Source: Octopus vulgaris (lineage: Eukaryota). From it: DNA of 64,000 bases. The notes under the pieces are model-generated. The model did no database searches. It was not told the DNA's origin and saw only the letters and a program-made list of their open reading frames with translations. Where the stretch lies: the NCBI GenBank assembly GCA_951406725.2, contig OX597827.1:33666001-33730000 (forward strand), written 5' to 3'. This document shows, in pieces, positions 3,671 through 64,000 of this stretch (the stretch's first letter is position 1; every line of letters starts with the position of its first letter). The translations under genes and the position numbers were made by a program.

Positions 3671-3953
3671 AACAAGACAAAATAATTCCCTATTTGTGAC
3701 ATAAAACTCCTTTTTGTCTTTCTCCCTCACTATTTAAGCTATAGGATTTTTTCCAAACACAGAAAACTACCGACTTGTTAGGAACAGTAGTACTTATTAA
3801 ATGTTCTTTTTACTTGTCTTGGTCAATTGACTGTGACCATGCTGGGGCGCTGCCATGGAAGGTTTAGTTGAACTTTTAGACCCCAGGAGTTAAACGTGCG
3901 CGCACACACACACGGGTACATATATATTTACAGGAAGTTAATTAAATGGCCAA

Positions 3954-4017
3954 TAGAATGACCAATGGTTTCGCATCCATAAAGCACTTAGCCTTATATA
4001 TCATTCATCAGACTCTA
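3954..4017 (-). ncRNA. Type I hammerhead ribozyme motif (minimal, Penelope-like)
   Basis: Minus strand reads TAGAGT-CTGATGA-AT-gatatataaggc/taagt/gctttatggatgc-GAAA-CCATTGG-TC-ATTCTA. This gives a 6-bp stem I, canonical core boxes, a short near-palindromic stem III and a GUC triplet. Stem II is imperfect at its base. Confidence 0.7.
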
Positions 4018-13642: not shown

Positions 13643-14827
13643 TCATATATTCATATAATGAGGCACATCTGCATCTTGTTGAGGCTGCACCTCGTGTGAC
13701 GTGGTCTGCTGCGACACACTGATTGTGCCGCCGGCATTAGAGGACACTTGTTGTCCACTGTCATTGGCAGGGACAGTAGTGGCTACAGTGGTTGCTGATG
13801 TTGCATGCTGCTGCCGTGGCACACAGCTTAGTTTACCACCATTTTTGTTGTTCCTCTGATGCCGTTCCAGATGGTCTTTGCGAGCGAAAGCATAGCCGCA
13901 CAGCCCACACCTGAATGGTCGTTCACCTGTGTGGATGCGATGATGCACCTTCAAGTGTGACTTCTGACTAAATGACTTGTTGCAGACTTCGCAGTTGAAC
14001 AGCTTCTCCCTTGTGTGCGCCCTCTTGTGGCGAGTTAGGTAGCTGTTCTCAGCGAAGGCCTTGCCACATAGTTCGCACCGGTATGGCAAAAGTGCAGCAT
14101 GAATGCGCTCATGTAGTCCTGCATCAGTTCGCTCAGTGAAAGCCTTCCAGCAGGCTCGGCAGTTGAAAGGGTTGTCATTATTGTTGTATGAAGAGCTGAA
14201 CCCCGGGTTTCCACCACCTCCTCCACCACCACCACCTCCTCCACCATCACCACCGCTACCACCACCACCACCTCTTCCCCCACTGCTGTTCCCTCCACTT
14301 CCACTACTGCTCCCATATCCAGAATTAAAATTTGGGTTGTTCTGTGGTAGGAGTGACTCCTCATGAGTGCGAAAATGTCGCGTGAGGTCACCATTTCGAG
14401 AAAAAGCTGCACCGCAGACGTTGCACTTGAAAGGCTTATCATTTGCATAGATTTGCGAATGTGTGTGCATGTATGTTTCACTCTGGTTGTCATGGTGCTG
14501 TGTGCTGATGGTTGGGGCAATGCCATGAGTCTTCATATGACGTGTCAAGTTGCCATTTTGGCTAAAGGCTGATCCACACAAATGGCATTTGAATGGTTTC
14601 ACACCTGTGTGGATTACCTTATGCTGCTTCAGGTGGGATTTCTGTGAAAAACTCTTGCCACAAGTGTCACAGCGGAAGGGTTTGTCAACCCGATGGGACA
14701 GCCTGTGCCGCTCCAAGTTATCGTAGCGGGTGAAACCCTTGCCACAGATGTCACAGCTGTGTGACCGCTCCATATTGTGGATGGCCTCAGAAAGTTCAAA
14801 GTTCGATGTGTTGATCATGTGATTCAT
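13643..14827 (-). CDS. C2H2 zinc-finger protein, 394 aa, 8 fingers (3+1+4) with a Gly-rich spacer
   Basis: Intact ORF with repeated CxxC-x12-HxxxH motifs and TGVKPF/TGERPF linkers. GC content is clearly above the flanks. No intron is needed within the ORF, but upstream exons cannot be excluded. Confidence 0.95.
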   Translation of the reverse strand: MNHMINTSNFELSEAIHNMERSHSCDICGKGFTRYDNLERHRLSHRVDKPFRCDTCGKSFSQKSHLKQHKVIHTGVKPFKCHLCGSAFSQNGNLTRHMKTHGIAPTISTQHHDNQSETYMHTHSQIYANDKPFKCNVCGAAFSRNGDLTRHFRTHEESLLPQNNPNFNSGYGSSSGSGGNSSGGRGGGGGSGGDGGGGGGGGGGGGNPGFSSSYNNNDNPFNCRACWKAFTERTDAGLHERIHAALLPYRCELCGKAFAENSYLTRHKRAHTREKLFNCEVCNKSFSQKSHLKVHHRIHTGERPFRCGLCGYAFARKDHLERHQRNNKNGGKLSCVPRQQHATSATTVATTVPANDSGQQVSSNAGGTISVSQQTTSHEVQPQQDADVPHYMNI

Positions 14828-15842
14828 AATGGAGAATGCAAAAAATAGGGAAGGTTAGGTTGCACGCATGTGTGCGTGCATGTGTGCTTGCACACACGAG
14901 TATGTGATTTTTTTTTGTTGTATGAGAAAGGTCAGGTGGAAATCTCAGCAAGTGCTAGGGATTAATGACAGAGTGGTGTGTAATTATTATAATGCAGAAC
15001 AATGAGGTAGCAGTGTTTGGTCTGGTGCAGTAGTGGCCCTATTATCTTAGCAGTTTCACAGCAATGTTAGCAGTAGTGTGACCAAAGTATTTTGAGCCAT
15101 CGATTGACTAGACAAATGTCCACCTGATTTCTGGAAGTGAACATTGCAACTGCTGTACAATTTCAATAGAGATGTTATAAAACAGTTAAAGATATATAAT
15201 GCATAGATATTGCAGCTGATGGGAGGTGACAGTAATGCATGCTGAAATGTAATGAAGTGTGACTAGTTAGCTGAATGGAACGGTGAGACACAAGGAATGG
15301 ATGAAGATGATGATTTTCTTACAAAAAAAAAATAAATAAATAAAAACTACTGGCCTTTCAACAGTTAAAACTGAGAGAGAAGGTGAAAAATGTTTAAATT
15401 ATTAGCAAGGAGGTTGAAGACATAGAGAGAGTGAGTGAGAGAAAATAGATAAACAATTCTTGCTACCCTAAGAAACAATGGAGTTATAGAACTCCAATGA
15501 GTAGTTCATTAGAATCAATGTCTAATAGAGTGTGCCATCAACTACCTTTTAAGTTACTAAAACTATCTACCTACTACTGTAGACATTAGGTAGCTTGGGT
15601 ATAAATATGAGCTGAAATAAAGTCCAATGCCACACCCTTCTTTAATTAAAACTGAAGTCAGAATTTGGCAAGTGTTGATATTTTGGTCTTTGACATTGTG
15701 TGTTTATAGTATGAGCATGGGGGTTATTATATGTTGTGTGTTTAACAACATAAATATTGTATCAAGATTGAAACAGTCTTGAATGTGGCAATTATACTCT
15801 AGATTTTGGTATTAATACAAGAAGTATGCCAGCATTAACATT

Positions 15843-49759: not shown

Positions 49760-50545
49760 TGTTATTATAATAGCCCTTGTAATTGTGCCGAGAGTGTTTG
49801 AATCTGAGCAGCCTGTTGAGCCAGGAGTGCACATAGTTCCAGTAGTTCAGAGGAATCCGAAGAAGCAGCAAAAGGATTGTTGGAAGATATTGGAGCCATT
49901 GTCGAAAACGAGTTGGCTGCCTCAGCGATTCGATCTGCTGTCTCGGCCAATTCATCGACAGTGGCCGATTCTTTTGTAGATGCCAGTATTACTTGTGTGT
50001 TGGCAGGCAGACGTTTCGGGAATATCCCATCTGCAAGGTGTGATCAACTAGCATAGTTGCTTCATCCGTCATAATAGTTGTGACGGAGTTTTATCACCCA
50101 GCTCTTCGGAAATTAAAAGTTGCTGCAGTTGCCGCTGCTCCGAGTCAGAGGTCCTTTTATGAATTAAATCTTAAAAGTGTCGTAAGACACGGGACCTGGT
50201 GGGGCCATAATCAAGTCCCTGACCGCCATCATTATTTCAGGTGAAAGAGCACCAATTAAGTACGTTAATTCCGCTGCGTCGCTCGTTATGCTATTTGCAG
50301 CAAACAGAACCACGACGTGGGTGAACGAGAGGGCCGGATCGAAAGAGCAGAAGGATGGCAGTTTTATTGAAATTGCGGCCTGAGGCAGTGCCATGACTAC
50401 GGAAGAAAAGGATGCAGGCGCGTCTTGCTCTGGAAAGTGCATATATAATAAAAAAAGAGGTGGTAATTTTTCTTTACACAGGGTCACCAAGTTGTTGGTA
50501 ATGCAGCTTCAGAAGGCAACAATTCTTTCGCTCGGGGTCGCCAGT
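49760..50545 (-). pseudogene. Gypsy gag remnant with primer-binding site
   Basis: AISIKLPSF...DPAL.F...ITSD....YLIGALSPE....VRDLIMAPP...YDTFK, then SEQRQLQQLL.SEELGD and AETADRI. A PBS-like TGGCGACCCCGAG follows ...GTTACA (LTR end at 50546 on plus). Confidence 0.85.
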
Positions 50546-57815: not shown

Positions 57816-59784
57816 AGGGTCACATAGTGCTGTCAGAGTAAGATAAGTTGTTCAGCAACAGCAGTTCTTTTAGAAAGAGGAATTTCTTTGACTGCATGAC
57901 TGGACAGGAAGCTGGTGGCACCTCAATGTTGTCACACCCTACACCTTATACATCATCCCCCCACCAATCTTCTGATCTAATGCTCCTGAGCCATTTCTAT
58001 CTCCTATCTCACTCCCATCTCCATACTGGTATTTTCCATCAGCTGTAGCTCCACCACCATATCTAACCATATGTTACTCTCCCCTCACACATTTATGAAA
58101 GAACTCCTTTCTCTTCTCCTCTCCTCTGACCCACTATCTGTATCCTTTCTTATACTCATCTTCCTGTACCCCAACTGCTCTCACCCACCACTGTATAAGT
58201 GTGGTAGCCACGTATTCTCTGTGTAACAAGACACCTATTATGGCTGTCCCTCTATCATGCTCTGCCTTGGTATAAAACATCACTTACCTCAAATACTCCC
58301 CATCACCTTGTAGTAGGAGCTTTTTCCCTATTGTTTATCTCTATATTGTAAGTTATTTGCTAACCTCACTAGTGCTGGTGGCTTGAAAAAGGCACCCAAT
58401 ATATACTATAAAGTGATTGGCATTAGGAAGGGCATCCAGCCATAGAAACATACTGGGTATTGTCAAGCTGGAGGAGCTTGCGTCTCCAATTGGCCAATGA
58501 TGGGTAGCAAGCTTTCAGAGCATCATATACTGACTGGAGTTGTTGAGCATAAAGGCTTGCATTGACAGCATGACCATCTGGAACAAGCTAAAAGTACAAC
58601 ACACCTTTGAAATTCCACCAGACACACAACATGACCTTCTGTTCAAACTGTCCTTGTTTGGCAACAGGTTCTGAAGCCTGACTGGAACATAGCCACTGAT
58701 GTTTTTTATTAGAATTATGAAAATAGATCCAGTTACAATTTGATACTAAAATGGGCAGCTTGAGTATTTGCCAGCAGTTGTTTGCAAATGTTCACCTGTC
58801 ATTGAGCCTGGTTATGGAACATGGACATTAAATAATGATGATGATGAGGATATGTATGTGTGTTTATCTGAATATGTATATATTAAAGGAGGATATAAAT
58901 ATTGGCAAGAAACTAAAAAAAAAAATAGAAGTGTTTAAAGGAAGTCTTTTATGATATTTGTTCTGAACCAAGTTATACACATTCTTGTCTCTTTCACTTT
59001 CAGAAATACAGTGAATTAGTGAATGGTTCTACTAAAACCTTCAACCAATGATGCTATTGTTCACCAATTCTGATGTAAAATATATGAAGAACTGAATATT
59101 AAAGCTGAAATATGCTACATTCTTGAAGAGAAAGCCTTGTATTGAGGGCATAGATTTGACAGTGTTAAGTATGTGAGGTCACCACAAGAGATATTAAGAG
59201 ACTATGATGTCTGTAGTTCATGATGAGCGTATGGGAGGTGCATGTATGTTGTGGTTGTATCATTACACTGCTGAAAAAGATTAGGGTTTCCTTTTCATCA
59301 GTTAGTCAAGAGAGAGGGGTAGTGCCTATTACCTTTTACAAGGTCTCCAAGATTAGTTGGTGGGCAGGAGGAGAGGCATTCTCAAACTGAAGACTTACCT
59401 CCAATGATTGTAATGAAACAGATTCCACTAAAGGCACTGACATGCCAAGTGGTGATGTTAGACTGGGTGACTAAGCCCATTGTAAAAGTAGGCCATGGTG
59501 GGGTTTGAACTCTGATCTCAACAAATTGGAACAAATGATCCTAGACATCTCATTTGATGCTCTGATATTTCCATCAGTCCATCACTCTAGATCGGTACTT
59601 CAGCTATCAATCCTGGAAAGACAAAAAGCAAAGCTGACCTTGATAGCTATTGAACTCAGAATGCAAGGAGCCAGAATAAAAGGAATTTTGCTCACCCTTC
59701 TAACTCTTCTCTAAATGTCTCCAGTGAAAGATGACCTTAAAGTCAGTGTGATGGAAGAGTCCTCCATATCTGTTGTTGGGTGTT

Positions 59785-61139: not shown

Positions 61140-62225
61140 TATAAGAGATGCAGCAACATTAAAGGGAAATTAACAGATAAGATAGCTTTCATGTGCGGCA
61201 GATGCACAGGGACAATAGACACAACAGACACTCAGAAAACAGATTCCATCACACTCCAGGGAGAGAAACTAGAAGTAGTTGATAGTTTCCGCTACCTGGG
61301 TGACCAAGTTAGTAGTGGAGGTGGATGCACAGAGAGTATCACCACTAGAATACGAATAGCCTGGGCAAAGTTCAGAAAGCTCCTACCCCTACTGGCAACA
61401 AAAGGTCTCTCCCTCAGAGCGAAAGGTAGATTGTATGATGCATGTGTGCGAACTGCCATGCTTCATGGTAATGAAACATGGGCAGTGACTGCAGAGGACA
61501 TGCGTAGACTTGAAAGAAATGAAGCTAGCATGATCCGCTGGATGTGTAGTGTCAGTGTGCACGCAAGACAGAGTGTAAGCATCCTAAGAGAAATGCTGGA
61601 TATAAGAAGCATCAGATGTGGTGTGCAAGAGCGACGCTTGCGATGGTATGGTCATGTGCTGCGGATGGATGAAGAGAGATGTGTGAAGAAGTGCCACTCC
61701 CAAACAGTTGAAGGTATCAGGGGGAGAGGTAGACCCAGGAAGACATGGGATGAGGTAGTCAAGCATGACCTCAGAGCATTGGGCCTCACTGAGGCAATGG
61801 CGAAAGACCGAGATCTCTGGAGATATGCTGTGACTGCAAAGACCCGGGCTGCTTTCTGCAGCAATTCCACATACCCCCTACCCATTCAAAGTACCCCGGA
61901 TCCCCAAAGTACCCCAGATCCCCAAAGTACCCCGAATCCCCAAAGTATCCCGGACCCAGTTGCCCCCGTGCCGCTGGCACGTTAAAAGCTCGAACCGATC
62001 GCGACCAATGCCGGACCCCCCGGCCCCTGTGCAGGTGGCACGTAAAAAGCACCCAATCCACTCACGGAGTGGTTGGCGTTAGGAAGGGCATCCAGCCGTA
62101 GAAACTCTGCCAAATCAGACTGGAGCCTGGAGCGGCCCCTGGCTTCCCAGACCCCGGTCAAACCGTCCAACCCGTGCTAGCGCGGAAAACGGACGTTAAA
62201 CGATGATGATGATGATGATGATGAT
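61140..62225 (+). mobile_element. 5'-truncated RTE-clade LINE with an open C-terminal ORF, 3' UTR and (GAT)n tail
   Basis: ORF 61098-61985 contains LEVVDSFRYLG, RIRIAWAKF, RRLRWYGHVLRM and GRGRPRKTW. The tail GGACGTTAAAC(GAT)n ends the element, and (TA)n lies on both sides. Confidence 0.93.
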
Positions 62226-62250
62226 ATATATATATATATATCATCATCAT

Positions 62251-62430
62251 CAAAAACACCCACTACACTCACGGAGTGGTTGGCATTAGGAAGAGCATCC
62301 AGCTGTAGAAACACTGCCAAATCAGACTGGAGTCTGGTGCAGCCTCCATGGCTTACCGGACCCCGGTCGAACCGTTCAACCCATGCTAGCATGGAAAACG
62401 GACGTTAAATGATGATGATGATGATGATGA
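62251..62430 (+). mobile_element. Second RTE 3' tail
   Basis: Near copy of 62045-62225 ending in (GAT)n. Confidence 0.9.
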
Positions 62431-63133
62431 AGTTGGAATAAAGAGCCAGTGTGAAATTTTGCATTAAACTTGGGAACTCTGCTACAGAGGCATGGAGCCA
62501 GCTTCAGCGAGCTTATAATGATAAGGCAATGAGCTGCACGTAATGTTTAGAGTGGCATGGGTGCTTCAAAATGGAAGAACATCCCTGGAAGACAATGAGT
62601 GATCTGGAAAACATACCACAAGTGTCATTCCCAGAAAGGCAGAGAAAATTATTCAGCTTGTGCATGAAGGTCATCAGAGGACAATCAATGATGTTTTAAA
62701 GCATTTGAGAGAGGACATTCAGCAAAAGCAACTGGAGCACAAAGAATTGGATTCTTCATGACAACAATGCATCCAGTCACTGAGCTCTTCTCACTTGTGA
62801 GTTTCTCACCAAAAACAACATGGCATCGCTTCTGTATCTGTCCTATTCACCAGATTTAGCACCTGCAAACTTCCACTTCTCCCCCAAGATGAAAATGCAG
62901 CTCAAAAGTTACTGTTTTAACACTGTTGTTGAGATAAAGAGCAAATTGCAGAAGGCCCTTGACTTGCTTACAGAAAATGACTCCCAGGTCAAATTCCATA
63001 AGTGACAGGAATGCTGGGACCAATGAATTGCTGTACATGGTGACTATTATGAAACAGATAATGTTAAATCTTGGGTAAATAAGTTATTTTTATTAAAAAG
63101 TAACAAGTCTGGGTACTTTTTGATACCACCTCA
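62431..63133 (+). mobile_element. Internally deleted mariner element
   Basis: RASVKFCIKLGNSATE HTH, WILHDNNASSH and YSPDLAPANFHFSPKMK. The right TIR is ...ACTTTTTGATACCACCTCA|TA. A related fragment recurs at about 63640-63750. Confidence 0.85.
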
Positions 63134-63330
63134 TATGTATATGTATGTATGTATATATATATGTATGTGTATAAAAAACCACCCTTTGTCAATTCAACTA
63201 TGAAAAAATCAAATTATACCATATAGAAAAAGATTACACCATATAGATAACAATTAAATATAAGATAAAACATATATCAATGATTAAATAATATACAAAA
63301 TAATAAATAAAACGTATATAATTGGTAAAA

Positions 63331-63413
63331 TGACTACACGTGTTTCGTGGCTATACTTAAGAACTGATAACTGTAAAATCAATTCAATTTAAATACAGCC
63401 ACTCTTCAGGTCA
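63331..63413 (-). ncRNA. Type I hammerhead ribozyme motif (minimal, palindromic stem III, Penelope-like)
   Basis: Minus strand reads TGAC-CTGAAGA-GTGGCTGTATTTAA...TTAAGTATAGCCAC-GAAA-CACGTG-TA-GTCA. This gives a 4-bp stem I, a 14-bp stem II with two G-U pairs, intact core boxes and a GUA triplet. Confidence 0.85.
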
Positions 63414-64000
63414 AAGATAAAAACAATAAAATAATTAAATAAATAAATATACATATATAATCTTGTAAAATACGAAATATCTTAACAAATATATTCTGGT
63501 GTAAATAAAACTAGAATAAATAGGTATAAATATTTATTATATTTATGAAAATAAAATTTTAACTTATATAAGAAAAGAATAACAAACTATAATATCATTA
63601 CTAGAAAAATTAAAATACAATTAATTAAATTATTTAAAATTGGATTCTTCATGACAACAAAGCGCCCAGTCACTGAGCTCTCCTCACTTGTAAGTTTCTC
63701 AACAAAAATAACATTGCATCGCTTCTGCACCTGTCTTATTCACCAGATTCTACCATCTCATCTATACTCTGATACCCGTTCCTTGCAAGTATACCCTGGC
63801 ACTTGCCACCATCTCTCCCCTACCCTTGCCTCTCCTATTCTCTCTTTTCTTTCCTCTCCCCTCTAGCTGAGTAATCATGAATCTCATCTACAGCAACAAA
63901 CGTGTAAGAGATGTAGTGAAATCACAAGTAGATTAACAGATAAGTTCACCTTCGTGTGTGACAGATATGCAGGAACAATAAACACTAAGAGCACATGGGA

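Follow-up and report, generated by a model that had tools for sequence, protein, structure and literature searches.

The window analysed here, a stretch of 64,000 nucleotides from Octopus vulgaris contig OX597827.1, carries near its end a type I hammerhead ribozyme motif with a palindromic helix III (63331–63413, minus strand). The motif lies in an AT-rich insert, which the initial annotation had placed at 63140–63640 with a length of about 500 bp. The insert is real, and family comparison refined it into two parts. One is an element of ~470 bp (about 63174–63640, minus strand), assigned as the 5′-truncated 3′ end (pLTR region) of a putative Hydra-clade Penelope-like retrotransposon (PLE) in its short-end form, lacking an ~80-nt tail. 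The other is a TA/TATG microsatellite at the 3′ end of the element (63133–63173), identified from the sequence and from family 3′ ends, which represents either the target of insertion or an expansion of it.

The flank at the 3′ side consists of a degenerate transposase relic (62420–63132, plus strand). Its translation contains WILHDNNA and YSPDLAP and is interrupted by stops. Judged by these motifs, the relic is probably of mariner type; the one segment of it that was scanned gave no Pfam match. A 112-bp mariner piece (63638–63749, plus strand) adjoins the truncated 5′ end with an overlap of 2–3 nt and is 90% alike to 62745–62856 over 112 bp, in line with the earlier claim that two related mariner fragments flank the insert. 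The two pieces share the base at 62775, which is rare among related copies in the runs examined; at three further sites, the piece at the junction matches the commoner base. A local duplication at the time of insertion may have produced it. The insertion is not private to this assembly, since runs labelled with two other organism names also gave contigs that cross the 5′ junction near 63640, with a single difference. Two runs guessed to be RNA yielded contigs that reveal neither strand, ends nor level; these covered 63180–63420 and 63203–63420 without differences and crossed the predicted cut.

Pfam analysis of 140 of the 219 candidate segments in the window identified only a C2H2 zinc-finger frame and two others. 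The zinc-finger frame (13646–14854, minus strand) has ~390 codons, looks intact, includes a glycine-rich linker and lies ~49 kb from the hammerhead. The others, DUF7041 and a mariner transposase piece, lay at 50167–50508 and 58591–58791 (both minus strand). The stretch 61500–62400 holds the 3′ end of a probably RTE-like RT fragment and, after it, two short repeats that are related to each other and run out into (GAT)n tracts. A second hammerhead-like motif is found at 3950–4017 (minus strand), with CTGATGA at 4011, an odd palindrome ACCATTGGT, a GTC triplet, a 6-bp stem I and a weak stem II base. This is probably another decayed PLE end.

All parts of the hammerhead at 63331–63413 are read on the minus strand. 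The 5′ strand of stem I, UGAC (TGAC in DNA; 63410–63413), covaries with 63331–63334 and is followed by the catalytic core C3–A9, CUGAAGA (63403–63409), which is conserved among copies. Stem II, including both strands and its interior, spans 63347–63402 with pair probabilities of 0.90–1.0. By direct reading, GTGGCTGTATTTAA (63402–63389) pairs with TTAAGTATAGCCAC (63360–63347) to form 14 pairs, two of them G-U, with G10.1–C11.1 at the base; in the predicted fold, the inner extension reaches 22 pairs. G12-A13-A14 and the 8-nt palindrome ACACGUGU (A15.1 to U16.1) occupy 63336–63346, with GAA at 63346–63344, the palindrome (ACACGTGT in DNA letters) at 63343–63336 and A17 at 63335. The palindrome is predicted to act in a dimer. 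The 3′ strand of stem I, GUCA (63331–63334), would form the 5′ end of the downstream cleavage product, as the predicted cut falls after GUA, between 63335 and 63334. All positions required of a hammerhead (C3, U4, G5, A6, N7, G8, A9, G12, A13, A14, A15.1–U16.1 and H17) are present. The initial annotation had described a complete core on this strand, a 14-bp stem II with G10.1–C11.1, stem I as TGAC/GTCA, a palindromic stem III and the same cleavage position, and our reading agrees with it throughout. The motif is a ‘small palindromic helix III’ variant and not a strict min-HHR.

Folding and shuffling set this motif apart from background. A 96-nt segment folded with z = −4.11, and none of 200 shuffles was equally stable. 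A descriptor comprising the core, a stem II of at least 4 pairs, a stem I of at least 4 pairs and a palindromic stem III was applied to both strands. It matched the 64-kb window once, at 63331–63413; 200 dinucleotide-shuffled versions of the window, scanned likewise on both strands, yielded 1 match between them. An Rfam search found no hammerhead at gathering score in the whole window or at E up to 10 in 62900–64000, and the weak matches returned were mostly miRNA-like and to the TA tract. We do not take an Rfam match to be a defining feature, and the Rfam miss is likely due to the long stem II.

To place the insert within a repeat family, we scanned 2.8 Gb of genome for family members and for hammerhead cores. 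A 476-bp insert query listed 45 matches, 39 other main ones being 84–91% identical; since 40 of 2,545 candidates were scored, the match count is at least this number. A 19-mer across the core had 119 exact genome matches, compared with 0 for the control. Family copies have staggered 5′ ends and fixed 3′ ends that enter (TA)n or (ATT)n, and are often adjoined by inverted 5′-truncated pieces. The window copy corresponds to positions 645–1128 of a 1,215-nt reference copy and ends at the shorter of two 3′ ends. A reading of the repeat as non-autonomous and 1.2 kb long was rejected, because the fixed 5′ end that had suggested it was an artefact of the copies sampled. Family copies selected by motif showed an apparent truncation hotspot at stem II.

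Longer copies carry, upstream and on the ribozyme strand, a GIY-YIG endonuclease and, further up, a reverse transcriptase (RT). For example, locus L098 contains the RT motifs FDIPMGTQDYAQATDLVG and GLYRDD, the endonuclease, a UTR, a hammerhead and an inverted second hammerhead piece, and its hammerhead segment is an 83% match to the window insert. The RT-then-endonuclease ORF is collinear with the hammerhead in both L098 and L213; the window copy is truncated and lacks the ORF. The distance from the stop codon at L096 is ~1.4 kb to the ribozyme and 1.7 kb to the 3′ end, giving a 3′ UTR of ~1.7 kb. At L206 and L208, the terminal tail is found ~60 nt upstream of the ORF start, a pseudo-LTR layout. 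This layout, inverted 5′-truncated pieces and the optional tail were all encountered among family copies. No intact full-length ORF was present among the family copies fetched, those examined being truncated or bearing stops or frameshifts, and the family layout is pieced together from several broken copies, no single locus being complete and unbroken. Two other leads were discarded. An RT-like fragment upstream in L021 was judged an unrelated neighbour, being absent from other copies, and two same-strand hammerhead pairs on C4, considered as flanks of an element, enclose no long intact ORF.

These coding regions narrow the earlier description of the motif as a Penelope-associated hammerhead to the Hydra clade. 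According to the portion of PMC8557442 used here, this clade is defined by a CxCX5C linker, absence of CCHH, CxxC and CxH motifs, RWK and DKT motifs, and insertion at (TA)n; its supplement lists Hydra-1_Obim, a family of Octopus bimaculoides, and shows that hammerheads of Hydra families are palindromic. The endonuclease of the insert family has the linker CTCRDKTTC (CxCX5C), a CxxC before the conserved E and a CxH after the N. Only one C lies between VVY and YIG, i.e. CCHH is absent. The close copies L147, L150 and L173 read RIKWKA and DKT (not DKG), the N-terminal KWK aligning with the published RWK and departing from it by a conservative change of R to K. Insertion at (TA)n is indicated both by the family 3′ ends and by the tract in the window. 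Named relatives of the element protein came from Argonauta and Octopus. Pfam returned nothing significant for RT or endonuclease on three ORF pieces of the family. Together, these sequence features support assignment of the element as a Hydra-clade PLE, the named Hydra proteins being compared by eye only.

A sister family shares ~66% endonuclease identity with the insert family. In 11 of 12 stretches, chosen for long frames, it holds an open frame of 821–862 aa. Judging by its sequences, the sister family is young, with intact and near-identical copies (e.g. L134:2711–5266, L136:2636–8946 and L143:2551–9389). In L136 and L143, both pLTRs carry a short-stem hammerhead whose palindrome is ACAAUUGU. 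The two hammerheads are separated by 6.3 and 6.8 kb, respectively, and the sister hammerhead lies ~270 nt before the ATG. Its 3′ UTR of ~3.5–4 kb contains internal repeats, and its units exceed twice the published Hydra length.

The sister family also has two 3′ ends, as in the insert family, plus a homologous tail. This optional tail of ~80 nt (L004:1990–2071 and homologues), absent from the window copy, is kept between the two families. Of 43 tails collected from both, most of the 36 folded as single sequences form a 10–15-bp hairpin, with a smaller one after it. CTAAT tends to precede both 3′ ends. The tail may mark RT start sites.

Conservation was analysed in an alignment of 75 copies (74 distinct), partly selected by motif and hence biased upward in conservation. 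Among the 74 distinct copies, 89.3% of cells were paired (stem I, 93.2%; stem II, 86.6%), compared with 23–43% in slid controls. The stem I pair 16/126 is AU in 36 copies and GC in 31, and both sides of pair 15/127 have changed in 13. None of 500 shuffles reached the observed paired percentage, score or number of doubly changed cells, a result to which one subfamily split contributes most and which kinship among copies can yield without structure; the pair-count and pair-type measures showed no excess over the shuffles (129 and 372 of 500). Stem II shows almost no compensation in these 74 copies. Its two weak positions are pair 29/107, unpaired in 37 of 74, and pair 41/96, unpaired in 44 of 68 copies with both letters. 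The two private stem II changes of the window copy both yield G-U pairs.

In 25 copies chosen by upstream sequence only, the 11 core columns were conserved at 0.967, compared with 0.931 and 0.904 in the flanks, a small excess. The initial annotation had looked to paralogs for a conserved core and a compensating stem II. The core is kept and stem I compensates between subfamilies, which is not the outcome that the annotation had named as refuting; compensation in stem II is almost absent. Of all 75 copies, 34 have both core and palindrome intact; among the 27 chosen regardless of motif, 11 do. Several departures in or beside the palindrome are CpG changes, either C-to-T or G-to-A, which would fit decay after insertion.

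Similar cores are abundant genome-wide. The core plus the ACACGTGT palindrome had 3,149 genome matches, compared with 4 for the reversed control. With ACA-NN-TGT as the palindrome, there were at least 21,323 cores with 40–60 nt between boxes (control, 93) and at least 6,323 with 12–39 nt (control, 126). Among the first 100 long-stem cores listed, ~82 had Watson–Crick palindromes and 98 were self-complementary allowing G-U; the central bases were TA (34), AT (21), CG (14), GC (13), TG (15), GT (1) and AC (2). ACACGTGT had been taken for a palindrome with a special role in being shared, a view given up because all four Watson–Crick palindromes are common. At least seven different-looking families share ACACGUGU. 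The palindromes among the listed cores are the strongest sign of selected pairing between two molecules. The octopus count, well over 20,000, is larger than the roughly 9,000 hammerheads given for Xenopus tropicalis in the part of PMC4209133 used here, and far smaller than the 120,000 retrozymes given for axolotl in that of PMC7229834.

Structure prediction suggests that pairing between molecules would be needed for activity. Within an 85-nt monomer, intramolecular helix III had a probability of ~0.04. When two copies were cofolded, the hammerhead dimer was the minimum-energy state (−65.1 vs 2 × −26.1 kcal/mol), and helix III was predicted in the dimer only. This prediction favours the proposal, already made on architecture, of cleavage as a dimer through the palindrome. 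As helix III is predicted to be absent from the monomer, this copy would cut only with a second RNA of compatible palindrome, and no other such hammerhead was found in the 73 kb scanned (the window and 9 kb past its end). Stem I had a probability of 0.00 in 231-nt and 471-nt contexts. The passages of PMC4209133 and of the review PMC6765202 used here describe metazoan PLE hammerheads whose monomers fail to cleave and whose dimers cleave weakly. For an anole PLE hammerhead, the part of PMC11167929 used here describes a need for the element protein, dispensability for insertion in vitro, two RT start sites that explain an optional tail, and RNA-seq ends at the cut site that were not found.

Extending published PLE work to this family, we infer that tandem or partial-tandem transcripts of the parent element would carry two hammerheads. 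These are predicted to pair via ACACGUGU into a shared 8-bp helix III and cut after GUA/GUC, in a reaction that would be slow and in which the element's own protein would probably assist. The target nicked by the endonuclease would be (TA)n DNA, for this copy the TA repeat at the end of the mariner relic. RT would start downstream of the ribozyme, at ~165 nt for the short end and ~250 nt for the tail end, and in most cases would break off early to leave stubs; here, it would have stopped after ~470 nt from the first start site. We conclude that the motif is very probably the hammerhead of a Hydra-clade PLE family, present in a 5′-truncated tail copy beside a TA repeat. The window copy is a solo truncated relic and, given the folding predictions and the lack of a partner in the 73 kb scanned, likely inert.

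Other readings of the locus account for less of the evidence. Absence of any Rfam hit at the locus is what a chance hairpin carrying hammerhead-like words would give. Against this stand the single descriptor match in 200 shuffled windows, the excess of core plus palindrome over the reversed control genome-wide, and the position of the motif in a pLTR, where PLE hammerheads are known; coincidence is thus a vanishingly improbable explanation. The insert could instead be the monomer of a non-autonomous retrozyme, a short, tandemly repeated sequence that is non-coding, carries a hammerhead and gives rise to circular RNA. It is non-coding, AT-rich and, at ~470 bp, within the monomer size range in the part of PMC7229834 used here, and derivation of retrozymes from PLE pLTRs is proposed in that of 10.64898/2026.07.22.740005. 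A few same-strand pairs also exist, at L213 and on C4 (1.2 and 2.8 kb apart). However, there is no fixed monomer length, and the staggered 5′ ends run on into the coding region. Across 89 loci, some of them overlapping, a strict motif found 61 single hammerheads, 3 inverted pairs and 0 tandem arrangements, with 25 loci missed by that motif. Short non-coding tandem monomers, each with a hammerhead, were not found here, and we consider a retrozyme origin very unlikely.

Retention of the window copy by the host, where it would cut a host transcript alone or in trans, is about equally improbable in our judgement. The intact core and palindrome, the restriction of its private stem II changes to G-U pairs, the difference-free contigs from guessed-RNA runs and the occurrence of the 5′ junction in runs labelled as two other organisms would all fit such a role. 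However, intactness can be explained without selection, as about four in ten of the unselected copies share it. Moreover, the longer-context folds lack stem I, no partner hammerhead was found in the 73 kb, published metazoan PLE hammerheads fail as monomers and are weak as dimers (in the part of PMC4209133 used), and cut-site ends were not found by RNA-seq for the anole element (in that of PMC11167929). A broader and comparably far-fetched scenario is that long-stem-II hammerheads invisible to Rfam are the dominant ribozyme class here, nearly all of them bearing one of a small set of palindromes. Solo relics would then pair in trans via common palindromes, unrelated active families included, in a palindrome-coded network cutting host pre-mRNAs or rival retroelement RNAs. 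A relic of a Hydra-clade PLE remains our preferred reading.

Hydra-clade hammerheads are already known, one from octopus included, and this finding itself matters little given that they are published. Its value lies in by-products, namely over 20,000 long-stem cores of a form that Rfam missed at this locus and an intact young family. The young sister family offers a ready substrate for asking whether PLE hammerheads cleave as dimers in vivo, whether protein assists them and whether families cross-pair. In a literature search that covered mainly open-access papers, we found no description of the insert family or of long-stem-II hammerheads in octopus; on hammerhead ribozymes in octopus, the sole relevant paper was Craig et al. 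(2021). In the main text of the octopus repeat annotation PMC13282606, a term search found no ‘hammerhead’, ‘ribozyme’ or ‘Hydra’. The case is modestly unusual in its long stem II, its ~1.7 kb 3′ UTR and the more than 21,000 long-stem cores genome-wide.

Among known systems, the closest are Hydra-clade PLEs, including Hydra-1_Obim (Craig et al. 2021, PMC8557442, as far as used here). They are alike in their C-terminal GIY-YIG with CxCX5C, no CCHH, CxxC, CxH and DKT, in (TA)n targets and inverted 5′-truncated pieces, and in a sense-strand type I hammerhead with a palindromic helix III, carried by the pLTR near the 3′ end. Hydra-1_Obim itself has a different hammerhead and a protein that, compared by eye only, is clearly homologous but diverged. 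Further differences are the stem II region, 56 nt in the insert family compared with short hairpins in the published Hydra table, and the tail, ~80 nt here compared with 30–40 nt. Units, too, are larger than the published <3 kb, probably ~4.3 kb in the insert family and 6.3–6.8 kb in the sister, with 3′ UTRs of ~1.7 kb and ~3.5–4 kb, respectively.

Metazoan PLE hammerheads, as presented in the part of Cervera and de la Pena (2014, PMC4209133) used here, are likewise type I, with a 4-bp stem I, a long stem II, G10.1–C11.1 and a palindromic 15.2–16.2 region, and occur mostly as solo truncated copies with a predicted dimer need. Unlike these, the insert family has no extra nucleotide between A9 and G10.1, and its stem II has 14–22 bp in place of 6–8 bp; the 8-nt palindrome forming helix III is absent from the strict min-HHR of those authors. 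The Poseidon element PAc of Anolis carolinensis (Frangieh et al. 2024, PMC11167929, in part) shares the two tail-separated 3′ ends downstream of the hammerhead and the AT-rich targets. The PAc hammerhead and start codon overlap, with RT starting within the ORF, whereas here the ATG is preceded by the ribozyme and by both ends. Finally, animal non-LTR retrozymes (parts of PMC7229834 and 10.64898/2026.07.22.740005) are alike in a non-coding stretch with a type I hammerhead needing a second copy, but differ in their fixed-length tandem monomers, the stretch described here being the end of a coding element.
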